Of a DNA stretch of 24,000 nt, positions 4,235 to 22,770 are shown one piece after another (within the stretch, counting starts at the first letter, position 1; every line of letters begins with the position of its first letter). Under the pieces are notes generated by a model. The model made no database searches and was not told where the DNA came from. It saw only the letters and a list, made by a program, of their open reading frames with translations. The stretch covers positions 698,182-722,181 of the forward strand of contig NZ_JAHLME010000002.1 in NCBI RefSeq assembly GCF_018919395.1, read 5' to 3'. The position numbers and the translations under genes were made by a program. The DNA comes from Geomonas azotofigens. Lineage in GTDB: Bacteria; Desulfobacterota; Desulfuromonadia; Geobacterales; Geobacteraceae.

Positions 4235-4642
4235 TTATTTAACCACCGGCACTGTCGCATCTTTTACAGCGTTCGCATCAGCCTTAGCTTTTTCCTTTAC
4301 TCCTTTTGCATCAGCTTTGGCCTTGGCTTTTGCGTCTTTTGCCTCTTTGGTTTTCGCTTCTTTGGCTTCTTTAGCCTTTGCAACTGCATCAGCTTTTGCC
4401 TTTGCTTTTGCAGATTTTACCTCATCAGCCTTGGCTTTTGCATCAGCTTTTGCCTTCCCTTTAGCTACTTTCGCATCGTTAGCTTTTGCGGTAGCTGCAT
4501 CTGCACCTTTCTGCACATCGCCAGCAGCCTTGTTTACAGCAGCAGGTACATAAGACGGATTGGTAGCTTCAGCAGCGAACGCTACAGCAGTAAAGGACAC
4601 GGCTACCAGGGTGGCAACTATTGCAGACAGGACTTTCTTCAT
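4235..4642 (-). CDS. Secreted Lys/Ala-rich low-complexity repeat protein
   Basis: ORF track 4235..4651 (GTG). The ATG at 4642 (MKKVLSAIVATLVAVSFTAVAFA) lies 8 nt after GGAGG. The mature part is dominated by AKAKADAKAKADEVKSAKAKAKADAVAKAKEAKEAKTKEAKDAKAKAKADAKG. Confidence 0.65.
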   Translation of the reverse strand: MKKVLSAIVATLVAVSFTAVAFAAEATNPSYVPAAVNKAAGDVQKGADAATAKANDAKVAKGKAKADAKAKADEVKSAKAKAKADAVAKAKEAKEAKTKEAKDAKAKAKADAKGVKEKAKADANAVKDATVPVVK

Positions 4643-4850
4643 GGGTAACACCTCCAGATGATTTTGCGAACGTATTTAACGCTGTAGCCAAATATCATAA
4701 TACTCGCAATTTGCTAAACCGCTAATACTCATTCTGACTTTACTCAGCCAACCTAGGATACATGTAGTACCGAGTACACTACCTTCTGCAAAATGTCATT
4801 CTTCATCTACTGAAACTTTTTTTGACATCAAAAACAATAGCCGCACCTAA

Positions 4851-8621: not shown

Positions 8622-8758
8622 ACACCCTCCTTTGAACAAATTAGAGACCTACAAGCTCAAACGCCATGCGGCGTCGAACATCACCTAAAGACCATAACAA
8701 ACCTCCGCCCCAAAAGCAACTTCCATTAATGCACAACTATGTGTGGCCCATTTTGTCT

Positions 8759-8890
8759 ATCGGAATCCAATTTCAACCCACCATCGACAATTATGAGACC
8801 TACCCGCAATCTAGTAACGGAAAAATATTTCACAGAGTGTGGGCAACCCGGAACGCCAATACTGTGTTAAAATTCGAAGCCGACCCACAA
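8759..8890 (+). repeat. Copy A of a diverged ~130-nt direct repeat
   Basis: ATCGGAATCCAATTTCAACCCACCATCGAC...TTTCACAGAGTGTGGGCAACCC...GTTAAAATTCGAAGCCGACCCACAA aligns colinearly with 10050-10182 at roughly 75% identity by eye. The best-conserved blocks are at the head and the tail. Confidence 0.8.
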
Positions 8891-9540: not shown

Positions 9541-9915
9541 ATGAAACAGGACGAATCTGCCGGACCTAAAACGATACTTCTTGTTGATGACGAGGCCCAA
9601 ATGAGGTCCTTGCTCTATACCCTCCTTACTAATTATGGTTACAACGTCATACAGGCGGTTGATGGACAGGATGCGCTAGATAAGTTCGAGCTAAACCAGC
9701 AGTGTATCAATTTGGTTGTAACTGACATCGTCATGCCTAGAATGGATGGTATCTCTAGCTTTAAAGAAATGAGCAAGAGAAATGCATCAGTTCGCGTACT
9801 TTATATGAGCGGATATATTCCAGAGCGGCCACTTCCGGAAGGCGTTAGTATCCTCCTAAAGCCATTCTCTCCTCTAGACTTTCTTCAAGCGGTTCACTCC
9901 ATCCTTGGCGACTAG
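9541..9915 (+). CDS. Stand-alone response-regulator receiver (CheY-like) protein
   Basis: 124 aa. ILLVDDEAQMR...LVVTDIVMPRMDG...YMSGY...LLKPF carries the DD / D / K receiver signature. GAGG lies 5 nt upstream. GC content is lower than in the neighbouring genes. Confidence 0.85.
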   Translation: MKQDESAGPKTILLVDDEAQMRSLLYTLLTNYGYNVIQAVDGQDALDKFELNQQCINLVVTDIVMPRMDGISSFKEMSKRNASVRVLYMSGYIPERPLPEGVSILLKPFSPLDFLQAVHSILGD

Positions 9916-9990: not shown

Positions 9991-10007
9991 TTCCTCCTGC
10001 CGGGTGC

Positions 10008-10041
10008 TCGGCGGGGGAAGATTTGCCTTTTTCCTGCTCAG
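10008..10041 (+). repeat. 34-nt exact duplicate of an internal segment of the 11565..11936 gene
   Basis: TCGGCGGGGGAAGATTTGCCTTTTTCCTGCTCAG is identical at 10008-10041 and 11747-11780, in the same orientation. Weaker similarity extends about 25 nt upstream in both copies. Confidence 0.9.
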
Positions 10042-10049
10042 GCGTGTCG

Positions 10050-10182
10050 ATCGGCACCCAACTTTAACCCACCATCGGCATCTTGAGACCCACCCCCTCA
10101 ATCTGTAAAGCCTCAATATTTCACAGGGGGTGGGTCACCCTTGGACGCCGATACTGGGTTAAAATTCGAAGCCGATCCACAA
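10050..10182 (+). repeat. Copy B of the diverged ~130-nt direct repeat (contains a 12-bp perfect stem at 10087-10098 / 10125-10136)
   Basis: Colinear with 8759-8890. GACCCACCCCCT pairs perfectly with AGGGGGTGGGTC. Confidence 0.8.
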
Positions 10183-11100: not shown

Positions 11101-11568
11101 TCATACTCCGGACCAGTATTTCCTGAGATCTTCAAGCCGTGTTGCACGCGCCACATACTCCTGGGTCAACTCGAGCCTCCGCACTGCGTAAAGAAGCCCA
11201 TTACACTCCCCTGCAAGCGCACGGAGCCTCACGTGGAGTTCCCTGTGCAGCCTTGGAGGCAGGGCTACAAGGTTCGAAGGATCGTTGTCATCTTTCCGCT
11301 CGTTTACGTGGTGGACAAACCATCCCTTCGGGACTTTTTTCCCGTTGACCATTTCCCACACTATGATGTGCTCCATTCGCCGGATCACGGATTTTCCAAC
11401 CGGAAGAAGCCGCTCTATGTACCCACTCGAAGTTACGATCGCCCGTGCTTTTTGAAACCAAGCCGGATCGCTGCTGTCTATGGCGAGTTCGGCGACACGC
11501 ACAGGCGCCACAACCTGTTTACCCTTGCCAGAGTGATGCTTGTTTCCAGCCACAGCCAGGTCCGTCAT
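11101..11568 (-). CDS. HNH endonuclease
   Basis: EHIIVWEMVNGKKVPKGWFVHHVNERKDDNDPSNLVALPPRLHRELH gives an H-N-H arrangement as in phage-type HNH_3 nucleases. The start overlaps the upstream stop (ATGA at 11565-11568). Confidence 0.8.
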   Translation of the reverse strand: MTDLAVAGNKHHSGKGKQVVAPVRVAELAIDSSDPAWFQKARAIVTSSGYIERLLPVGKSVIRRMEHIIVWEMVNGKKVPKGWFVHHVNERKDDNDPSNLVALPPRLHRELHVRLRALAGECNGLLYAVRRLELTQEYVARATRLEDLRKYWSGV

Positions 11569-11936
11569 GCCAGTCCCCCCATCGCTCCGTAAAGCATCTT
11601 TGCTTCCACGAACGCCCTGCTGTTCAAAAACCGATACCCACCAAAGTCGAACAGCGGCACATCGGGCACTCCCTGGACGCGATCGTGCACCATCTGGATT
11701 TTGACCCGGAACTCCATGAAAAAAGCAACCACCTCCCGCCGGGAATTCGGCGGGGGAAGATTTGCCTTTTTCCTGCTCAGCCGCAAGCCCTGCTCTGCGA
11801 CTTCGAGAAAATCACGCGTCTGTTCTGTTGCCAGATTGTGCAGGACATCGGCGACCTCCGGATCAAGCTGGTCCAAGGTCATCCCAACGTTCTGCCCTAC
11901 CCATTGCCGAACATCCTTTTTCCCTCTCATGTTCAT
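11565..11936 (-). CDS. Hypothetical protein, first gene of the four-gene operon
   Basis: ORF track 11565..11966 (GTG). The ATG at 11936 (MNMRGKKD...) lies 4 nt after GGGAGGG. It contains the 34-nt segment duplicated at 10008-10041. Confidence 0.55.
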   Translation of the reverse strand: MNMRGKKDVRQWVGQNVGMTLDQLDPEVADVLHNLATEQTRDFLEVAEQGLRLSRKKANLPPPNSRREVVAFFMEFRVKIQMVHDRVQGVPDVPLFDFGGYRFLNSRAFVEAKMLYGAMGGLA

Positions 11937-12001
11937 GGTTCCCTCCCATGCGTTAAGTTCGTTCACAGAAGATCAACCCCCGTCAACTGTTCACAAATGC
12001 C

Positions 12002-12093: not shown

Positions 12094-12450
12094 ATGGAAA
12101 AGATCATCGACCAGCAGATGTTTATCGACCGCTTGCGCGATCACATGGTATCTAAAGGATTCAGCCAGGCAGCCCTTGCCAGGGCCGCGGAACTCTCCCC
12201 ATCTGTCCTCAGCATGTACTTTTCCGGCACCCGAACCCCAAATAGGGAGGCGCTCATGCGCCTTGCCAAGGCGCTTGATTGCTCAGTCGACTATCTTGTG
12301 GGGCGCAAATCGAGGTCCGAAATCGAAGACCTGGTTCAACAGGAAAAGATTCAAGAACTTATCGCAGAGTTCAGCGCCCTTTCCGCACATGACCAAAACC
12401 GCATCATGGATATGATTCGCCTGCTGCGTGCCGGCACCACATCTGAATAG
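12094..12450 (+). CDS. XRE-family (Cro/C1-type) HTH transcriptional regulator
   Basis: 118 aa. FIDRLRDHMVSKGFSQAALARAAELSPSVLSMYFSGTRTPNREALMRLAKALDCSVDYLVG is a canonical HTH_3 domain. It is divergent from the operon. Confidence 0.85.
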   Translation: MEKIIDQQMFIDRLRDHMVSKGFSQAALARAAELSPSVLSMYFSGTRTPNREALMRLAKALDCSVDYLVGRKSRSEIEDLVQQEKIQELIAEFSALSAHDQNRIMDMIRLLRAGTTSE

Positions 12451-12565: not shown

Positions 12566-13393
12566 CTAGCGGCAGTAGTGGGAAATGACATCGATTCTGC
12601 CGTGCCCGAGATCCCTGGCAATGGCCTCGCGGTCAACGCCAGCCGCTTTCAAAGCCTGAGCGTACCCATGCCTGGCAAGGTGCGCATTCGCACCATTCTC
12701 TTTCGTGGCACCCGCGCGATGCAGGGCATTACGCTGAAAGTCATAGGCCTGCTTGAGGGTCATGCTGGCGGGGATCAAGGATTTTGCTCCTGTTTCGGCC
12801 AAATGTTGCTTAAGAGTTGCCAAGGCAGCGCCTTTTTCAGGTGTATCGACTGTAAGGCTTCGAGGCCGACCACCCTTTGTACCTTCAATCTTGAGCAAAG
12901 TCCTGCCACGAGTATCGGTAAAGGTGATTTTGGTGAGAAGACTTTCCTTCACCCGGGTGCCAAAGGAAGCACGAAGGTCACTTGCGATTCCCAGCCACTC
13001 CGCCTTTTCATACAGAGCCTGGCGTACCTCCAGCATCTTTTCAACGTTCGGATCTTTCGGCTGAAGGCGAGTACCGGCTCTGGAACCTCCCAATGCTCCG
13101 TTGTCTCGGGGGACGATATTAGCCTTCCCGATAGCACCGGCGAGCGTTCTCATTGCCGTAGCGTACCCGCTGATAGTTGATGGAGACAAGCCTTCAGACT
13201 TGAGCTTTTCAAATAGGTCGTTCACGAACTTGCCACCAACCTGGTCCATATGCTGGTAGCCCTTTTGGGCGGCAAATTCTGCGATACGATTAAGATTTCC
13301 GAGAAGTTTTTCCCGGGTCAATGACGCGCCATTCCAATTTTTCCCTATCACGTTCCGTGCTTCCTGTTGCAGTTTCTCTGTGTGCGTTCCCAT
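12566..13393 (-). CDS. Short tyrosine-recombinase-like protein (integrase-domain protein)
   Basis: 275 aa with GGGAGG 7 nt upstream. Candidate catalytic pattern: R in FGTRVKESL, K in EGTKGGRPR, HLARH (H-x-x-R) and GHGRIDVISHY (H...Y). The family assignment comes from motif spacing only. Confidence 0.6.
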   Translation of the reverse strand: MGTHTEKLQQEARNVIGKNWNGASLTREKLLGNLNRIAEFAAQKGYQHMDQVGGKFVNDLFEKLKSEGLSPSTISGYATAMRTLAGAIGKANIVPRDNGALGGSRAGTRLQPKDPNVEKMLEVRQALYEKAEWLGIASDLRASFGTRVKESLLTKITFTDTRGRTLLKIEGTKGGRPRSLTVDTPEKGAALATLKQHLAETGAKSLIPASMTLKQAYDFQRNALHRAGATKENGANAHLARHGYAQALKAAGVDREAIARDLGHGRIDVISHYCR

Positions 13394-13415
13394 AAATTGA
13401 CCTCCCGTAAGTGAT

Positions 13416-13467
13416 GTGCTGCGGCATGCGTTCCTGATTTGGCAATCAGGAGCGCATGCCGCAGCAC
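13416..13467. repeat. 52-nt near-perfect inverted repeat (24-bp arms, 4-nt spacer)
   Basis: GTGCTGCGGCATGCGTTCCTGATT-tggc-AATCAGGAGCGCATGCCGCAGCAC. It has 23 Watson-Crick pairs plus one T-G pair (13431/13452) and starts 23 nt upstream of the recombinase-like ATG. Confidence 0.9.
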
Positions 13468-13701
13468 ACCGCCTAGCCCCAGCAGATGCTGTTGAGTGTA
13501 GGTGTCTGTGGTCTTCAGTTTAGAAAACCACCGAATGCGGGCCATAGTGGTCCGCATCGCCACAGGTTTTAGCCTCGTCTCGTAAGGCGAGGATCCCCAT
13601 CAGGGGCATTCCTGCGTGACATTTGCCGCCCCGATCGCGATCGGGACAGGCTGGGGATGAGTCATATGGAAACGCGCGTTGCGCGGAATTGTAGGAGTGC
13701 A

Positions 13702-13720
13702 AGGTGGCGGGGGAATCGAA
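13702..13720 (-). other. Degenerate tRNA-fMet 3'-end-like sequence (candidate relic att)
   Basis: Plus-strand AGGTGGCGGGGGAATCGAA compared with the tRNA TGGTTGCGGGG(ACAG)GATTTGAA gives 9/11 plus 6/8 matches with a 4-nt gap, in the same orientation as the tRNA. Confidence 0.3.
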
Positions 13721-13860
13721 ATTGAGAATTTCGAAGCGCCGAATCTCTTCGAGATTCGGCGCTAACGTGTCGGCAGCATTAAGGAATTGCCTGCCGTCTC
13801 TTTCTCAACGCTTCGCTTATGAGTAAAGAGACGGCAGGTCCCTCTATTGCGCGTCAACGC

Positions 13861-13887
13861 AGGTTGTGGTGGCAGGATAGACGAACC
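13861..13887 (-). other. Degenerate tRNA-fMet 3'-end-like sequence (candidate relic att)
   Basis: Plus-strand AGGTTGTGGTGGCAGGATAGACGAACC compared with the tRNA TGGTTGCGGGGACAGGATTTGAACC gives 14/18 plus 5/7 matches with a 2-nt insertion, in the same orientation as the tRNA. Confidence 0.4.
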
Positions 13888-14132
13888 GCAGAAGAACCTG
13901 CGGTCCGGCAAGCTATCGCTTGCATCAGTGGAGAGCATCAAGAAAGCATTTTGATGCCAAAGTGGAGATCATGAAGAGTGCGGTTGAATCCGGCGTGGCA
14001 TCATCTACTTAATGTATGCGAAAGCAGATTCTTGAGGGAGGTAGCCCTCCGGTACTCTTTCTGCCAGAGGGCCTTCTTGTAGGAATTATGAGGACCACTG
14101 CGATCCCAGCAGCGACTGTCCCTTCACGGGGA

Positions 14133-14906
14133 TCACGGTATTTCTGCCGCTTGGTTTTTCACCAGTCGCTTTACCTTATTATAGTGGCAAGTGAATTTTC
14201 CCACCTGTTTGTCAATGTGCAGGTGGCCGAAATGCCAACTTCCAAAGGTCAGTTGCTCGTATATCTTTTGCAACATATCCTCTGTGGGGTCAGGAATACG
14301 TCCCGATTTAAGAAAGCCCGGGCGCAGACTGGCCGGACATGTGTGGGTTATCACATGATCGACAACCCAGCCTGCCCTGTCCAGGTTGCGGCAGGCATTG
14401 TCATAATCATCTTGCGTAGGCAATTCTTCCGGCCACCAATTCACCCCCTCTTTTCGGGGCGGCAGGTAGTCATACCCACCCTCCCAGCCAAGTGAAGGTA
14501 TCTTGGCGCCGAACCGGTCTTGGCTGATTGCTCCACCGAAGGCAAGGAATGTCTCACCTTCGATTTGAAAGACCTCTCCGCGTTTGAGATAGAATACGTT
14601 CTTACGGATTTGGTAGGCGCGTCCACCGTACAGATCCACCAGAGGAAACTCTCCGCCAAACAGCCTTGCGAAGTTTTCATGATTCCCATCCACGGCCAGC
14701 CAGGTAACTCGCTGCCGAAGCCGTGACTCAAGAAAATAATCCTCCTGGCGCCTGTGGTTCTGGTTCAGGTGGTAATCGTGGTACCAGACTCCACCGAAAT
14801 CGCCACAGCACAGCACGATATCGCCTTTTTTCGCAGGTTTAAAATTGGCAGACGACACATGCCAAGAGGTTTCGCCGCCGTGCAAGTCGCCGGTAACATA
14901 GATCAT
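14133..14906 (-). CDS. Calcineurin-like metallophosphoesterase (phage Ser/Thr-phosphatase-like)
   Basis: ORF track 14133..14951 (TTG). The ATG at 14906 gives MIYVTGDLHGG. Motifs are GDLHG, GDFGG, DGNHEN, THTCP and GHLH. Confidence 0.85.
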   Translation of the reverse strand: MIYVTGDLHGGETSWHVSSANFKPAKKGDIVLCCGDFGGVWYHDYHLNQNHRRQEDYFLESRLRQRVTWLAVDGNHENFARLFGGEFPLVDLYGGRAYQIRKNVFYLKRGEVFQIEGETFLAFGGAISQDRFGAKIPSLGWEGGYDYLPPRKEGVNWWPEELPTQDDYDNACRNLDRAGWVVDHVITHTCPASLRPGFLKSGRIPDPTEDMLQKIYEQLTFGSWHFGHLHIDKQVGKFTCHYNKVKRLVKNQAAEIP

Positions 14907-15188
14907 GATTGGCTCGTCATTTAAAAAGTGCTGGTCCACGGCGCATAACAAGCAGCTATCGCGAACGCGCCCTCAAAGAAACAAAATCATCGCCACGTGT
15001 TCCCCAAAAGATGCTTTGGCGGAGTGCATCTTTCACCTGGCTCCGGCTGGGGAATTGTTGCCGGGAGCTGAAAATCCGTATCGGAAATAAAAATCTATCA
15101 AAAGAACAGCTTAAATTTCTCAAACCTCTACTACATTTAGCCCTTCCAAGAAGGGCCGAAGAATCCCGGCATATTCCCCATGCCCGGA

Positions 15189-15446
15189 CTATACAATCTC
15201 GACAGTGTCACAGACCCTCTGAATAACGAAGGCTGTGAATTCTTTTCCAAGCCCGGTTTCAGGCTGATTCATCAGAGCATGCCTGAACGACTGATTGGTA
15301 AACCCCAAAGGGATCGCTGCTCCGGATATAGTTGCGTGGAGACCATCTGGGCCGTACGACCCTTTACTTTCGCCGCAGAAACAAGAGCGTTCTTGCCTAC
15401 GTAATGCCACAACGTCGCCACACCTAATGCAATAGATAAGCTTCAT
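15189..15446 (-). CDS. Small zinc-ribbon-like protein, paralog 1
   Basis: MKLIYCIRCGDVVALRRQERSCFCGESKGSY has a CxxC...CxC pattern. AAGGAGG lies upstream. It is clearly homologous to the adjacent 15517..15813 product. Confidence 0.6.
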   Translation of the reverse strand: MKLIYCIRCGDVVALRRQERSCFCGESKGSYGPDGLHATISGAAIPLGFTNQSFRHALMNQPETGLGKEFTAFVIQRVCDTVEIV

Positions 15447-15516: not shown

Positions 15517-15813
15517 TCAAAGCCCCTTATTGACGACGGTATGGGGGTTGCCTTCGCCATCATGCGGCCTAACCCAGCAGTCTACCTGGCAAGCTTGCTC
15601 ATACCCTTCGGTGGTTTGTTCATGTAGACAACCCATTCTGCCAATCGCTTTGAAAAGCGAGACATTATCGATGGCTATAGAGAATCCTCGTCCGTTGACC
15701 TCTGCATTCCTTTCGTCGAGGTAGCGGCCTTTAACGCGACCACACCGACAAGAACGCACGTTGAGCGAGAGACTAAATATATCGCTGCACTCGGTACAAA
15801 AGACTAGTTTCAT
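15517..15813 (-). CDS. Small zinc-ribbon-like protein, paralog 2
   Basis: MKLVFCTECSDIFSLSLNVRSCRCGRVKGRY has the same Cys spacing and conserved MKL, RSC.CG, KG.Y, G and N.S positions as paralog 1. Confidence 0.6.
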   Translation of the reverse strand: MKLVFCTECSDIFSLSLNVRSCRCGRVKGRYLDERNAEVNGRGFSIAIDNVSLFKAIGRMGCLHEQTTEGYEQACQVDCWVRPHDGEGNPHTVVNKGL

Positions 15814-16140: not shown

Positions 16141-16365
16141 ATGAAAAACAATACCGACACCCACAAGGTCCGGCCGGGGGAACCAATATTTATAACTCCT
16201 GAAGAACTTGCACATCGCTGGCACTGTGCCCGAACCAGCGTGGACAGGATCGCAAGACGCGAAAACCTTTCCAGAGTCTGCCTCGGAACCGGGAAAAACG
16301 GCATGGTGCGCTTCCTTCTCAAAGAGATCATGGAGTATGAGGCCTCGAGAACGGTTCGAGTCTGA
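16141..16365 (+). CDS. Excisionase/AlpA-like HTH DNA-binding protein
   Basis: 74 aa with GGAGA 6 nt upstream. FITPEELAHRWHCARTSVDRIARRENL resembles excisionase-family (MerR-like) HTH domains. The gene is convergent with the integrase gene. Confidence 0.65.
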   Translation: MKNNTDTHKVRPGEPIFITPEELAHRWHCARTSVDRIARRENLSRVCLGTGKNGMVRFLLKEIMEYEASRTVRV

Positions 16366-16454: not shown

Positions 16455-17684
16455 CTACCTGTTATTGACCACCAGTTTCAAAGTAGCTCTTCGCGTTGCC
16501 GGCTCCGCGCCATCATCGCCCTTTGCAGAATCGAGCACAGCCAGGCCCTGCTCTACCGGAAATTCGACGCTTTCCATAAGTGATTCCGGCATGAGGGCCG
16601 CGTAATGCTTTCTGCACATTTCCGGGGAATTACCCATTAGCGTCGACACCTTATACAAACTTTCACCCTTCATCGCCAACTGACTGCCAAAGGTGTGGCG
16701 ATAATCCAAACAGGACCAGGACAGACCATGCTTCGAGTTACTCTCCCGCAGGAGTTCAGAAAAGTTGTCAGGATCCCACTGCCCACCCTTGGGAGCACAA
16801 AAGAACCAGATCCCCGGCTTCCTTACCTCGAGGTAGGAGTCCAGATGCTCCCTGAGGGCTTTACTTATGGGCACCGGGCGGTCCTCGCCGGTTTTGGGCA
16901 TCCACGTTTTGCCATCGATCGTCTTCCCTCGCACCATGATGACTCCGTGGTTGCCCATGCTCCACTCAAAGTCATCAGGAGTCAGCCACAGGGCCTCTTC
17001 CCGGCGAAGACCAGCGTAGATGAAAACGGCAACCATCGTCTGAAGTTGGGTATCGTTTGCGAGCACGTCAAGCTGAGTGCGGATATCCTTAAGCTTGAGA
17101 AAGGTGATCATGCTTTTGGGTACCTTGTAGCACTTGACGTCAGCTACCGGGTTTTTCCCGCCAGGAAAGCGCACCCCACCTTCCCGCTGAGCCCAGTTGC
17201 ACAAAGTGACTATGGTCTGACGATAGTGGTTGGCCGTTCTCGGAGAGACGCGCTTGTCCTTGATGAGCTCGGAAAGAAATGTGGACAGGACTTCGGCGCT
17301 GAGATGCTCGATGTGGGAGATGGAGATGATAGAGGCAGAGCCGGCACTCGGACGCTTCACGGCCTTTTGCGCGATGGCCTGGTTGCGAACCTGCAACGCT
17401 TCGCATACCGGACCGAAGGCACCGCGCAGGTAGGTGTTTATCTTAGGGATGTTCTTGTCCCTGCTGTGCCCGCTTTTGTACTTGATGTACTTCTCGAGGA
17501 TGTCGCCGATGGGGGTTTTGGTGGTAAGGGGAATCTCCTCTTCGCGGAACTGAGCCGACTCGATCTGGCGCAGTTTCTCCTTCGCGACCTGGAGGGACTC
17601 CGTGTGCAGGTTCACCCTCTTCTGTTTGCCGTTGTCGTAATACTGGGCGTAGTAGGCCCTGCCCCGCTTCTTCAGACTTGCCAT
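16455..17684 (-). CDS. Tyrosine-type site-specific integrase
   Basis: ORF track 16455..17792. The ATG at 17684 (MASLKKRGRAYYAQY) follows GGAGGA. Catalytic pattern: AGLRREE (R), PKTGEDRPVP, DYRHTF (H-x-x-R) and LMGNSPEMCRKHY (Y). Confidence 0.9.
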   Translation of the reverse strand: MASLKKRGRAYYAQYYDNGKQKRVNLHTESLQVAKEKLRQIESAQFREEEIPLTTKTPIGDILEKYIKYKSGHSRDKNIPKINTYLRGAFGPVCEALQVRNQAIAQKAVKRPSAGSASIISISHIEHLSAEVLSTFLSELIKDKRVSPRTANHYRQTIVTLCNWAQREGGVRFPGGKNPVADVKCYKVPKSMITFLKLKDIRTQLDVLANDTQLQTMVAVFIYAGLRREEALWLTPDDFEWSMGNHGVIMVRGKTIDGKTWMPKTGEDRPVPISKALREHLDSYLEVRKPGIWFFCAPKGGQWDPDNFSELLRESNSKHGLSWSCLDYRHTFGSQLAMKGESLYKVSTLMGNSPEMCRKHYAALMPESLMESVEFPVEQGLAVLDSAKGDDGAEPATRRATLKLVVNNR

Positions 17685-17764
17685 AAAAAAATCCTCCGCA
17701 AGTCCTATTGTGCAGGCCAGAAACCCCTTTCCCGCGGACGGGGTACAAAAAAGGGTACAGGCAT

Positions 17765-17798
17765 GAAAAAAGGGACTTGCAACGATGTGCAAGTCCCT
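17765..17798 (-). terminator. Rho-independent terminator just downstream of the tRNA
   Basis: The minus strand reads AGGGACTTGCA-catcgt-TGCAAGTCCCT followed by TTTTTT. Confidence 0.7.
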
Positions 17799-17808
17799 GA
17801 TTTTCTTT

Positions 17809-17885
<77 letters not shown>

Positions 17886-17931: not shown

Positions 17932-18029
17932 TGTAAACATTTGAGGAAAGCTAACAGGGATAAAGGGGATAAAAGGGATAACTGCAAAATCCCTTTGAGT
18001 GGTAGATCCCTTGCATCCTTCATCCTTGT

Positions 18030-18776
18030 TTACTTCTTGCCGCAAAGCCTCTGACGCACTACCTCGAAGAGGAAAATCCCGCCGGCAACGGAGGCATTCA
18101 GGGAGTTGACGCCTCCTTGCAGCGGGATGCTGACCACTTCGTCACATCCTTTTCTGACCAGGGGGCGGATCCCCTCCCCTTCCCCACCTATGACCAGGGC
18201 AACGCGGCCGGTGAAGTCCTGCTGGTAAAGGGTGCTCCTGGCTGAGCCGTCGGCGCCATAGATCCAGAAACCTGCTTTCTTCAAAGTTTCCAACGCCTGC
18301 GAGATGTTGGTGACCTGCGCCACGGCAATCGTCTCGGTGGCTCCGGCGGACGATTTCTCGACTACGGCGGTGACGCCCGCGGCACGGTCCCTGGGGATAA
18401 CGACGGCGTGGGCGCCGGCACAGGCGGCACTGCGGATCAGGGCGCCCAGGTTGTGCGGGTCCTGTACGCTGTCGAGAACCAGGATGAGACCGCTCGGGTC
18501 GCCTTCCAGCCCTTGAAGCACGTCATCGAGATCGGCGTAGGGGAAGGGTTCGACTTTTAAGGCAACACCCTGGTGGTGCTCGGTGCCGCACAGGCGGCTC
18601 AGGTCGCCCTTCTCGCGCTGGCGCACCGGGATCTTCTTCTCCGCGGCAAGTTTCAGCAGCTTCTCCAGGCGCTTGTCGGCACTGGTTCCGGCTACGAAGA
18701 GTTCGAATATCTTCCGCGAGCCCCTGAGAGCTTCCATTACCGGGTTCAGGCCATAGATGATTTCTTCTTTTGACAT
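18030..18776 (-). CDS. rlmB: TrmH/SpoU-family 23S rRNA 2'-O-methyltransferase, RlmB-like
   Basis: ORF track 18030..18824. The ATG at 18776 gives MSKEEIIYGLNPVMEAL. The SpoU motifs are LDSVQDPHNLGALIRSA and GGEGEGIR...IPLQGGVNSLNASVAGGI. Confidence 0.8.
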   Translation of the reverse strand: MSKEEIIYGLNPVMEALRGSRKIFELFVAGTSADKRLEKLLKLAAEKKIPVRQREKGDLSRLCGTEHHQGVALKVEPFPYADLDDVLQGLEGDPSGLILVLDSVQDPHNLGALIRSAACAGAHAVVIPRDRAAGVTAVVEKSSAGATETIAVAQVTNISQALETLKKAGFWIYGADGSARSTLYQQDFTGRVALVIGGEGEGIRPLVRKGCDEVVSIPLQGGVNSLNASVAGGIFLFEVVRQRLCGKK

Positions 18777-19702: not shown

Positions 19703-19823
19703 TTAGCCACGGAGAAAATCTGAGAACTTCCGAGATAACCAAAAAGAGAAAAACGTCAAACGGGTTACACCCAATGCTGTTGTTTCGTTCTCTCCGATTT
19801 TCTCAGATTTTCTCCGTGGCCAA
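19703..19823. repeat. Palindromic intergenic element, copy 1 (between proS and pyrF)
   Basis: The 21-nt arms GCCACGGAGAAAATCTGAGAA (19706-19726) and TTCTCAGATTTTCTCCGTGGC (19800-19820) are perfect inverted repeats. The element has the same arms and similar internal ends as 21606-21718. Confidence 0.9.
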
Positions 19824-19837
19824 TGGTGTTTTTTGGT

Positions 19838-21559
<1,722 letters not shown>

Positions 21560-21605
21560 TCGTTCGACCTCTAAGTGAATTTAAAAGCAAAAGAAAACAA
21601 GACCT

Positions 21606-21718
21606 TTGGCCACGGAGAAAATCTGAGAACTTCTGAGAAAACCAAAAACATAAGACGGGTTTCCCCCCCAAAAGTCTTTTGCTTCTCTCAGATTTCCTCA
21701 GATTTTCTCCGTGGCCAA
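21606..21718. repeat. Palindromic intergenic element, copy 2 (between ispG and proS)
   Basis: GCCACGGAGAAAATCTGAGAA (21609-21629) and TCCTCAGATTTTCTCCGTGGC (21695-21715). It shares CTTCYGAGAWAACCAAAAA after the left arm with copy 1. Confidence 0.9.
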
Positions 21719-21723
21719 TGGTT

Positions 21724-22770
21724 TTAAGGTTTTAACACTTCCTCTATCAACGCGTCGGCGAGCTTGTCCTGGGGGACTTTGCGCAGGATCTCGCCGTGCT
21801 TGAACAGCAACCCCTCTCCCCTGCCGCCGGCAATGCCGAAGTCGGCCTCGCGCGCCTCGCCGGGCCCGTTCACGGAACATCCCATGACGGCCACGGTGAT
21901 GTTCTTGTCCAAGTGCGCCAGGCGACGCTCGACTTCCTCGGCCACCGGGATCAAATCGATCTGGCACCTGCCGCAGGTCGGGCAGGAGACAAAGTTGATG
22001 CCGCGCTGCCGAAGCCCCAGCGACTTCAATATGTCGTAGGCCACGCGCACCTCGTGCACCGGATCGCCGGTGAGCGATACGCGCATGGTGTCGCCGATCC
22101 CCTGGTGCAGCAGGATGCCGAGGCCGACGGAAGACTTGATGGTGCCGGAGAAGATGGTGCCGGCCTCGGTGACGCCGATGTGCAGCGGGTAGTCGACCGC
22201 CTCGGAGAGGAGCCGGTACGCCTCCAGGGTCCGCAGCACGTCGGAGACCTTAATGGAGATCTTGATTTCCTGGTAGTTGAGCTCTTCCAGGATCCTCACG
22301 TGCCCCAGGGCGGATTCGACCATCGCCTCGGGTGTGGGGTGCCCGTACTTGACCAGGAGTTCCTTCTCCAGTGACCCGCCGTTCACGCCGATCCGGATCG
22401 GGATCTGCCGCTCGGCGGCAGCCTTCACCACCTCGGCCACCTTCCAGCGCTCGCCGATGTTGCCGGGGTTCAGGCGCAGGCCGTCGACGCCGGATTCCAG
22501 CGCCTGCAGGGCCAGCTTATAGTCGAAGTGGATGTCGGCGATGAGCGGGATGGCGCTGCCTGCCTTGATGGCGGCCAGGGCCTTGGCGGCGTCCAGGTCG
22601 GGTACCGCGCAGCGCACGATCTCGCAGCCGCCCTCGGCCAGGCGGCCGATCTGCTCGAGGGTCGCGGCCACGTTTCTCGTGTCGGTGGAACACATGGACT
22701 GTACGGAGCAGGGAGCGCCGCCACCGATCGGCACGTTGCCTATCTTTATCTGCCGGGTGAGCTTTTTCAT
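21724..22770 (-). CDS. ispG: 4-hydroxy-3-methylbut-2-en-1-yl diphosphate synthase (IspG/GcpE)
   Basis: 348 aa. MKKLTRQIKIGNVPIGGGAPCSVQSMCSTDTRNVAATLEQI plus the C-terminal Cys cluster FVSCPTCGRC...MGCSVNGPGE. Confidence 0.95.
   Translation of the reverse strand: MKKLTRQIKIGNVPIGGGAPCSVQSMCSTDTRNVAATLEQIGRLAEGGCEIVRCAVPDLDAAKALAAIKAGSAIPLIADIHFDYKLALQALESGVDGLRLNPGNIGERWKVAEVVKAAAERQIPIRIGVNGGSLEKELLVKYGHPTPEAMVESALGHVRILEELNYQEIKISIKVSDVLRTLEAYRLLSEAVDYPLHIGVTEAGTIFSGTIKSSVGLGILLHQGIGDTMRVSLTGDPVHEVRVAYDILKSLGLRQRGINFVSCPTCGRCQIDLIPVAEEVERRLAHLDKNITVAVMGCSVNGPGEAREADFGIAGGRGEGLLFKHGEILRKVPQDKLADALIEEVLKP

Follow-up and report, generated by a model that had tools for sequence, protein, structure and literature searches.

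Three relaxases of the MOB_M class have been studied, MpsA of the integrative island SGI1 (Salmonella genomic island 1), MobK of plasmid pIGRK and TcpM of plasmid pCW3, although according to a 2026 preprint MOB_M relaxases are the commonest chromosomal relaxases, 96% of them adjoining an integrase (bioRxiv 10.64898/2026.01.13.699239). The same preprint provides a dedicated MOB_M profile (cut-off 84), which separates relaxases from ordinary recombinases, and PF12835 has been used as the signature for MpsA-like relaxases (Bioteau et al., PMC10484663). Here we describe a non-coding gap of 739 nt (positions 13394-14132) in a window of 24,000 nt from Geomonas azotofigens (contig NZ_JAHLME010000002.1, positions 698,182 to 722,181); "the window" denotes this whole stretch, and positions are counted from its first letter. 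The gap precedes a minus-strand gene for a tyrosine-recombinase-like protein with a PF12835 match and is, on balance, probably the non-coding half of a MOB_M-type mobilization module, composed of a candidate origin of transfer (oriT), formed by two hairpins that we call H_A and H_B, and a putative structured minus-strand RNA of roughly 400 nt resembling the sgm-sRNA of SGI1.

In SGI1, the minimal oriT is a segment of 125 bp with several inverted repeats, located upstream of mpsA at SGI1 positions 18016-18140 (PMC6414798, Kiss et al. 2019); from the published coordinates (PMC6414798, PMC9299015) we calculated that it lies roughly 290-410 bp upstream of the mpsA start. The core of a small RNA (sRNA), sgm-sRNA, occupies ~280 nt between oriT and mpsA and is essential for transfer (PMC9299015, Nagy et al. 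2021). Its transcript starts upstream of the preceding open reading frame (ORF) and ends near a stem-loop by the mpsA start (PMC9299015), and by our reading of the coordinates in that paper it runs in the same direction as mpsA. The RNA acts in trans and is dispensable for the expression of MpsAB, and a role in relaxosome assembly was suggested by its authors (PMC9299015). In the case of pIGRK, oriT lies in a 456-bp intergenic region that directly precedes mobK and contains several inverted and direct repeats (PMC8152469).

The gap separates the recombinase-like gene from a phosphoesterase gene, both on the minus strand. An earlier note on this DNA, made from the letters and a list of ORFs, had described it as free of ORFs, denser in stems than any other intergenic region of the window and matching none of the classical RNA families. 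The gap is in effect ORF-free: the only ORFs, of 71 and 60 aa on the minus strand, cross hairpins, and the gap sequences of homologues differ by indels of 1, 5 and 8 nt, which speaks against coding. Since these lengths are not multiples of three, a small protein gene was ruled out. All the listed stems were found by sequence reading and with a repeat finder at or within a few bases of where they had been placed, including the palindrome CCCGATCGCGATCGGG and the pairs GCGCCGAATCTC/GAGATTCGGCGC and CCTGCCGTCTCTTT/AAAGAGACGGCAGG. The repeat finder returned the arms of the long 24-bp hairpin as 13408-13439 and 13444-13475 (88% over 32 nt), and the direct repeat reported at 13927 and 13961 is present as well (17 nt, 88%). 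On either strand the gap had a minimum free energy (MFE) far below that of dinucleotide shuffles (z = -12.98 for plus, -13.60 for minus), and so had its conserved core, 13394-13846 (z = -9.9 and -11.7, respectively), so that the comparison with shuffled controls proposed in the earlier note came out in favor of structure. The claim of the highest density also holds, essentially: when MFE was scanned along the whole window in sliding 200-nt windows, with a correction for GC, 13301-14100 contained 10 of the 25 that ranked highest for structure, the first-ranking one among them. A scan with Rfam 15 gave nothing in the gap at gathering score, and at E <= 10 it gave only generic microRNA-model matches to long hairpins, in agreement with the lack of a family match noted before. 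Neither did blastn of the region against phage and plasmid collections give any match, and viral and metagenome contigs did not contain the invariant 24-mer as an exact match. Only one other spot in the window is so structured, a comparably extreme hairpin of ~110 nt at 21600-21715, whose outer stem is perfectly paired over 22 bp (z = -6.7 relative to shuffles), between the convergent ORFs 19823-21574 (plus strand) and 21724-22770 (minus strand).

Relatives of the recombinase-like protein form a graded series, from 96% to 31% identity, and 24 related loci across this range (31-96% protein identity) with enough upstream sequence were fetched. The only feature that was always linked to the gene was the non-coding region before it; the phosphoesterase, HNH and repressor genes vary. 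Conservation with distant relatives spans the region from H_A (13791-13837) to the start codon. Listed in the direction of the gene, the parts of the gap are as follows.

13847-14132, minus strand: distal, fast-evolving part with hairpins at 13885-13904, 13935-13957 and others, and the direct repeat AGTGGAGAGCATCAAGA / AGTGGAGATCATGAAGA
13791-13837, minus strand: H_A, with the invariant core GTCTCTT / AAGAGAC, five covarying outer base pairs and a variable loop
13736-13762, minus strand: H_B, a 12-bp near-perfect inverted repeat with a GNA triloop (CTC-GAA-GAG)
13673-13685, minus strand: H_C, a small G+C hairpin (CGCGC-loop-GCGCG), in 10 of the 10 close loci, with one-sided changes only
13477-13656, minus strand: multi-helix domain of ~190 nt, closed by CCCCAGC/GCUGGGG (13650-13656 with 13477-13483)
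13626-13649, minus strand: H_D, inside the closing helix
13618-13621 / 13503-13506, minus strand: helix 8, inside the closing helix, with compensatory changes
13611-13616 / 13561-13566, minus strand: helix 9, inside the closing helix, with compensatory changes
13595-13605, minus strand: H_E, inside the closing helix
13574-13591, minus strand: H_F, inside the closing helix
13532-13559, minus strand: H_G, inside the closing helix
13508-13531, minus strand: helix 13, inside the closing helix
13491-13498, minus strand: single-stranded motif CACTCAAC, invariant (family consensus CACTYAMC)
13413-13470, minus strand: long hairpin of 23-24 bp, 7 nt upstream of the ribosome-binding site
13401-13406, minus strand: Shine-Dalgarno sequence GGGAGG, invariant in the alignments

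The distal part aligned only with the nearest relatives (L001, L009 and partly L031), among which some compensatory changes were seen; it could serve the phosphoesterase gene as a 3' untranslated region, or form the 5' portion of a primary transcript.

The structure of the core is conserved and covaries. Homologous regions were collected, as the earlier note had proposed, and an alignment (A5) that covers H_A to the ATG in 10 homologous loci, from Geobacteraceae or metagenomes, was folded with RNAalifold. The consensus contained 118 pairs, of which 45 showed compensatory double changes, as compared with 23.7 +/- 2.7 in shuffled alignments (0 of 500 reached 45) and 9-16 when pairing partners were slid, that is, moved by 1-3 columns. 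Similarly, 95.8% of cells were paired (85.8% after shuffling, 41-46% after sliding), and the covariation score was 0.357 (0.166 and 0.06-0.08, respectively). The long hairpin next to the start codon contributed 13 of its 23 pairs with compensatory changes, with 97% of cells paired. Distant sub-families have other helices, and within pairs of such loci compensatory pairs numbered 21/111, 15/84, 9/127 and 4/110. A covariance model of the multi-helix domain (R1) gave full-length sense-strand matches outside its building set, in L014 (41 bits), L027 (99.6), L022 (26.7) and L036 (23.4), of which L022 encodes a protein of only 40% identity. In the R1-fitted alignment 49 of 55 pairs covary, including 6 of the 7 of the closing helix, with the caveat that this alignment was itself fitted to the model. 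Thus, the stems carry compensatory changes above both the shuffled and the slid controls, and the single-strand structure of the region is almost certainly under selection.

H_A marks the 5' boundary of the family-wide conservation. It was present 278-550 nt upstream of the ATG in 24 of the 24 related loci (at -439 in the window, where H_B lies at about -350), and there is no second copy of it in the window. Its arms, CCGTCTCTTT and AAAGAGACGG, are perfectly paired; across loci the five pairs of the outer stem use all four Watson-Crick pair types, and the loop varies from 13 to 50 nt, with a GCGNAGC mini-hairpin inside it in about half of the loci. The H_A pattern also occurred in viral contigs, at no fewer than 120 loci, and none of those listed encodes a relative of the protein; by a rough estimate for a 16-base palindromic pattern, about the same order is expected by chance. 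A multimer-resolution site was rejected, as a variable spacer of 13-50 bp is incompatible with the core site of a tyrosine recombinase. H_B shows compensatory changes of AA/TT to GG/CC and reads GTCTC-GAA-GAGAC in the L010 group (L010 5640-5670), as if it were a shortened paralogue of H_A; the two appear to have the common core (G/A)TCTC ... GAGA(C/T). The second hairpin of L019 has a 5' arm (GTGAGAAAAGAGACAG) that is almost a repeat of the H_A 3' arm. The relatedness of H_A and H_B and the repeated arm in L019 suggest two binding sites for one protein. Inverted repeats that cluster in non-coding DNA some hundreds of bp ahead of the relaxase gene, as H_A and H_B do ahead of the recombinase-like gene, are what oriTs of MOB_M elements would lead one to look for, and the suggestion of the earlier note that the gap has a strand-specific single-stranded DNA function, such as that of an oriT, fits this context as far as the origin is concerned: the PF12835 gene is adjacent, and the oriTs of SGI1 and pIGRK lie upstream of their relaxase genes. 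H_A is the best candidate for an oriT or a protein-recognition site, and whether H_A and H_B together are the oriT we regard as close to, but short of, an even question.

The 3' side of the gap, of ~330 nt, is differently built: it consists of the multi-helix domain, the invariant motif CACUCAAC and the 24-bp hairpin. The domain holds an invariant 23-mer, GGCAAAUGUCACGCAGGAAUGCC (13605-13627). The pattern C[AT]CT[CT]A[AC]C of the single-stranded motif was matched in 22 of 25 related loci, and L004 and L005 carry the related CGCTTAAC. In distant loci, 30-60 nt separate the motif from the ATG downstream of it; in the sub-family of the window its position is -105, because the 24-bp hairpin is inserted between the motif and the ATG. 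Likewise, GGCAAAKTCACTCAMC is contiguous in L002 and L019, and its halves are split by the helix-8 domain in the sub-family of the window, a pattern typical of an expandable RNA core. The putative invariant core of this RNA-like family is GGCAAAU...CACUCAAC, around which helices are expandable. We also considered a guide-like pairing of CACTCAAC with the H_A loop; a 6-bp match in the window showed no covariation, and the idea was dropped.

The earlier note had also pointed to three G-T positions within stems of the plus strand, and had read them as a hint of a plus-sense structured RNA. These positions are real; the plus-strand bias was not confirmed, as on the conserved structure the window has 9 G-U pairs on the minus strand versus these 3 on the plus strand. 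In the family, pairs common to independent folds of both strands had G-U at 36 positions on the minus versus 15 on the plus strand (binomial p = 0.005); a structure folded with G-U forbidden had 54 versus 20 G-U cells, and a plus-derived fold had 41 versus 29 G-U positions. Terminal loops pointed the same way, with 11 GNA, 6 UNCG and 1 GNRA loops (18) on the minus strand and 2 in total on the plus strand. Taken together with the core z-scores, the G-U counts and the loop motifs indicate that the functional strand is very probably the minus strand, on which both flanking genes are encoded. The alternative, a structured RNA from the plus strand that is antisense to these genes, would account for the three G-T positions and for an A-C mismatch conserved in H_G in 10 of 10 sequences (and for one in H_F), which is G-U on the other strand; the stretch also has a positive GC skew, and the absolute MFE of the gap is lower on the plus strand (-346 versus -325 kcal/mol). 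However, the latter is expected from the higher G+U content of the plus strand, and such an RNA is contradicted by the wobble asymmetry in the window and in the family, by the loops and by the core z of -11.7 versus -9.9, which together make it very improbable.

The asymmetry is not uniform along the gap. In H_A and H_B, which are nearly perfect Watson-Crick helices and carry the DNA-type GNA loops, G-U (2.6%) and A-C (1.7%) are strand-symmetric. In the helices downstream of H_B (alignment columns 274-570, including H_C and the 24-bp hairpin), which carry the UNCG loops, G-U amounts to 8.9% versus 0.7% for A-C, ~13:1. The region would thus be bipartite, with DNA-level inverted repeats followed by a sense-strand RNA domain. 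The special stability of UNCG tetraloops applies to RNA. On the other side, GNA triloops, including GCGNAGC, are classic stable DNA mini-hairpins, and G-T is the best-tolerated mismatch in DNA, so that the G-U asymmetry alone is no proof of RNA. The whole of the region could therefore be pictured as an extended origin of 450-740 bp made of DNA and used in single-stranded form, an oriT joined to a single-strand initiation or promoter element of the ssi/Frpo or f1-intergenic kind, with no functional RNA involved. The stems, long, mostly perfectly Watson-Crick and folding well on both strands, would suit such an origin, as would the 11 GNA triloops, the tolerance of DNA for G-T and the position of oriTs in the upstream gap in this class of relaxases. 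What would not be expected of transient single-stranded DNA are nested helices that span 55-180 nt, with compensatory changes and a closed multi-way junction; moreover, the minus strand has 6 UNCG tetraloops, G-U is in excess in the downstream domain only, and in SGI1 the minimal oriT takes up only 125 bp, the adjoining segment working as RNA. We consider the DNA-only origin quite improbable, and it is likely that the downstream domain acts as RNA.

The protein encoded downstream of the gap carries the signature used for MpsA-like relaxases and has a tyrosine-recombinase fold, as listed here.

12566-13393, minus strand: tyrosine-recombinase-fold protein of 275 aa, putative MOB_M / MpsA-type relaxase (PF12835)

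It matched PF12835 (Integrase_1) with 32.9 bits, above the gathering score of 23 (E = 7e-8), and PF00589 with 27.1 bits, and its homologues are likewise annotated with PF12835 in precomputed annotation. The catalytic set R147, K173, H238, R241, H264 and Y273 was invariant or nearly so in 30 close and 22 distant sequences. In an AlphaFold2 (AF2) model with a predicted local distance difference test (pLDDT) score of 89.9, both domains matched Cre, XerH, XerA and lambda Int, and the N-terminal domain, which has four helices, could be aligned with the core-binding domains of Cre and XerH. The core-binding domain is thus fused to the catalytic domain, unlike the arrangement of SGI1, in which a catalytic protein without this domain is paired with an MpsB-like partner, and this fusion would explain why there is no separate MpsB. 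The protein is not an orthologue of IntI or Xer, since its NCBIfam scores were far below the cut-offs (for the integron-integrase model, 20 bits versus 265). As in other MOB_M-type contexts, an integrase gene (16455-17792) lies 3 kb from the gene, and the same arrangement was found in L009, L010 and L027. By its class, the protein would be expected to nick DNA.

The same evidence bears on a simpler explanation, that the gap is a cis-acting 5' leader of a gene for a genuine site-specific recombinase, with H_A as an operator or an RNA-protein hairpin and with no role in conjugation. The leader RNA would sense a ligand or a protein, be autoregulatory, or control the translation or stability of what would be the second recombinase of the island. 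The RNA-like domain is on the strand of the gene, the structure reaches the conserved ribosome-binding site, with the 24-bp hairpin 7 nt upstream of it, and RNAalifold predicted a weak long-range pairing of the Shine-Dalgarno sequence with the invariant UUCUC at 13724-13728, possibly an anti-Shine-Dalgarno helix in the model. The protein itself, with a complete Cre/Xer-like two-domain fold, all catalytic residues and a PF00589 score that almost equals that of PF12835, would not be out of place as a recombinase. However, changes in the predicted anti-Shine-Dalgarno helix are one-sided, with no compensatory support, Rfam gave no match to a ligand-binding family, and the counterpart RNA of SGI1 is trans-acting and not required for MpsAB expression. 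In addition, the near-perfect, strand-symmetric H_A and H_B with their invariant core resemble DNA recognition sites, an integrase is already present at the tRNA end of the island, and the PF12835 family recurs on tiny plasmids. On these grounds a leader of this kind seems unlikely, though less so than either of the two explanations discussed above.

According to the mobilization reading that we prefer, the locus would be a small integrative mobilizable island whose gene downstream of the gap encodes a protein of the PF12835 / MOB_M kind, the class of MpsA. H_A and H_B would be the protein-recognized hairpins of the origin of transfer, and the RNA, by analogy with sgm-sRNA, would derive from a transcript that is co-directional with the flanking genes. 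Transfer would require this RNA as well as the relaxase, and its most plausible contribution would be to bind the relaxase or the relaxosome; it might additionally gate relaxase translation. That it acts in transfer at all is suggested by the same analogy. A bolder and rather doubtful extension is that MOB_M relaxases generally work as ribonucleoproteins, with the covarying minus-strand RNA as an obligate partner that would position or activate the enzyme on a hairpin oriT, or else provide its link to a foreign secretion system.

Several observations weigh against the mobilization reading. The likeness to oriT_SGI1 and sgm-sRNA is one of position, as the sequences clearly differ by their published descriptions. 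There is no separate mpsB gene, nor any plausible small ORF after the recombinase-like gene. The PF12835 score is modest and that of PF00589 nearly equal, and the fold is indistinguishable from that of true recombinases. We know of no helper conjugative element for these hosts. H_A is separated from the gene by as much as 280-550 nt, a nick site cannot be assigned, and the GTCTCTT hairpin was absent from homologous loci outside the Geobacterales-like clade, on plasmids of Francisella, Shinella and Pseudolysobacter. The case for a minus-strand transcript consists of the G-U asymmetry, the loop asymmetry and the complexity of the fold, to which the A-C mismatches of H_G and H_F run counter, and a scan found no consensus promoter or terminator on the minus strand. 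A sigma-70 promoter between H_B and H_C (TTCTCA ... TACAAT/CAAAAT) was judged unconvincing, its spacing being 12-29 nt in the alignments, and intrinsic terminators were ruled out by the absence of U-tracts.

The PF12835 homologues on plasmids deserve a description of their own. Relatives of 25-33% identity were found by tblastn on 145 plasmids, several of them of only about 5 kb (Acinetobacter, Francisella), and the ~5-kb plasmids were typed as non-mobilizable by MOB-suite. Examples on plasmids so typed are L032 (Francisella pFPJ_1, 4.9 kb), L034 (Shinella) and L033 (Pseudolysobacter). The ORF-free region upstream of the gene measures 755 bp on the Francisella plasmid and 1096 bp on the Shinella plasmid, where it contains several long perfect hairpins. 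The Shinella and Pseudolysobacter plasmids have a small overlapping downstream ORF, which could be a counterpart of MpsB. In the metagenomic locus L011 (3086-8314), the module adjoins a type I-C CRISPR-Cas operon (Cas7, Csd1, Cas5d) instead of the usual cargo.

The island that carries the module in the window is ~7.6 kb long (about 10.1-17.8 kb of the window), has a lower G+C content and is inserted at tRNA-Met. Its other recognizable features are these.

17809-17885, minus strand: tRNA-Met, the only Rfam match at gathering score in the window
16455-17792, minus strand: island integrase, abutting the 3' end of tRNA-Met and marking one end of the island
14133-14951, minus strand: calcineurin-like metallophosphoesterase (PF00149 and phrog_1649), cargo, upstream of the gap and co-directional with it
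12094-12450, plus strand: RstR/cI-like repressor gene, just beyond the recombinase-like gene

On the minus strand, from the tRNA inward, the island contains the integrase gene, small Cys-rich ORFs, the metallophosphoesterase gene, the gap, the 275-aa tyrosine-recombinase-like gene, a 133-aa ORF, an HNH endonuclease gene and two unknown ORFs. The phosphoesterase gene is missing or replaced in L010, L011 and L027 and is thus outside the conserved module. From its sequence, we take the 74-aa ORF at 16141-16365 (plus strand), near the integrase, to be an excisionase-like DNA-binding protein. The island has no secretion-system or coupling-protein genes. The left 9 kb of the window are occupied by host genes (OmpA, aquaporin, MscL), which start again left of about 10 kb, and the right end by a SpoU methylase gene and others; Citrifermentans bremense has the same small island at the same site (AP023213.1, about 1.5137-1.5208 Mb). 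With up to 3 mismatches allowed in 25 nt, no attachment repeats of the tRNA 3' end were detected.

A direct repeat of ~140 bp (75-85% identity, 8754-8890 and 10045-10182), located at the distal end of the tRNA-Met island, flanks a 1.3-kb segment with a response-regulator gene (9541-9915); the repeats may represent a duplicated attachment region, or a second small element accreted in tandem. A 52-nt repeat with a G+C-rich hairpin (90% identity) occurs near the island boundary (9993-10044) and within the island ORF 11565-11966 (11732-11783). Two paralogous small island ORFs of 98 and 85 aa (15517-15813 and 15189-15446) both begin with MKL..C..C followed by a second Cys pair; neither has a family match, and by this pattern they look like zinc ribbons. 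In the host part, degenerate tandem repeats with periods of 24-54 nt (4274-4510) lie within ORF 4235-4651 (minus strand), which looks like a low-complexity repeat protein.

Other functions that the neighborhood or the stems might bring to mind were rejected. A filamentous-phage intergenic region or an RS1-like satellite, prompted by the RstR-like repressor, would need Zot, coat or Rep genes, and there are none. A cos or pac site working with the HNH gene was dismissed as that gene is not conserved with the module. For an invertible promoter of the FimB/E type, the loops are of 3-50 nt, no repeats flank a promoter-sized segment, and the weak long-range repeats are not conserved. A telomere-resolvase target does not agree with the asymmetric center of the 24-bp palindrome or with a protein that is small and Cre/Xer-like.

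The locus represents a family of at least 24 loci in a phylum distant from that of SGI1, with an invariant candidate hairpin, a covarying RNA-like domain outside Rfam and a compact element of 7.6 kb. A need for RNA has been observed once, in SGI1, and may be general among tyrosine-recombinase-type relaxases; its generality in this machinery becomes testable with a structure that is supported by covariation, and a structure-based model for searching related elements is supplied as well. If the ribonucleoprotein extension were true, sgm-sRNA of SGI1 would be one instance of a widespread and ancient mechanism of RNA-dependent DNA transfer, and the structure described here would be the first phylogenetically resolved one of this RNA family. 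If the gap were only a leader or an oriT, it would still be a well-supported new structured element of Geobacteraceae islands.

Among known systems in which a structured nucleic acid accompanies a DNA-processing enzyme, the bridge RNA or seekRNA of IS110 is similar in being a conserved structured non-coding RNA that is encoded directly before the gene of a DNA-rearranging enzyme and in the orientation of that gene. However, the IS110 recombinase is of the DEDD/RuvC-like plus Tnp-domain type, whereas the protein described here has a tyrosine-recombinase fold; the bridge RNA is ~180 nt long with two internal loops that vary with target and donor, whereas the single-stranded motifs here are invariant, and no covarying complementarity of a loop to DNA was found in our loci. 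Integron attC and CTX-phi attP share with H_A a hairpin with conserved arms and a variable loop, a tyrosine-recombinase-fold protein nearby and the importance of the strand. Unlike attC, H_A lacks R/L boxes (GTTRRRY) as well as obvious extrahelical bases, and it occurs in one copy with no cassette array. GOLLD, ROOL, HEARO/omega RNA and group I/II introns resemble the region in size, location on a mobile element, multi-helix architecture and a nucleic-acid enzyme gene nearby, but the region matches no Rfam 15 family. Closer to it are MobK of pIGRK and TcpM of pCW3, relaxases with a tyrosine-recombinase catalytic domain, of which the former has its oriT before its gene; they differ in lacking a core-binding domain, in being plasmid-borne and in that no RNA component has been reported for them.

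The closest system is SGI1, for all the differences between the two. SGI1 has a gammaproteobacterial host and the island described here one of the Geobacteraceae, in a different phylum; the latter lacks mpsB, traG/traN/traH, sgaCD and rep genes, and among the best 120 matches of a profile search aimed at SGI1 MpsA there was no recognizable SGI1 protein. oriT_SGI1 is made of an AT tract with a 7-bp GC-rich inverted repeat (IR1) and imperfect IR2 and IR3, in contrast to the GTCTCTT/AAGAGAC of H_A, and the structured part of our locus is larger and far more paired, with its 24-bp hairpin and closed domain of ~190 nt. We found no report of an sgm-like RNA outside SGI1 in the literature. Nevertheless, both are integrative islands with a PF12835 tyrosine-recombinase-like protein and a separate integrase, and in both the gene is preceded, at a distance of a few hundred bp, by a cluster of inverted repeats. 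In our locus, a conserved structured domain is found between H_B (13736) and the ATG (13393), the position that sgm-sRNA holds in SGI1, and the candidate RNA would cover 13413-13685; the G-U and loop asymmetries suggest that it has the orientation of the gene, and the 24-bp hairpin, 7 nt from the Shine-Dalgarno sequence, corresponds in position to the stem-loop at the start of mpsA. The two islands present the same order of elements at matching distances: a co-directional ORF, inverted repeats, a structured sequence (in our locus probably on the strand of the gene), a hairpin at the start of the gene and the gene of the established or putative relaxase.

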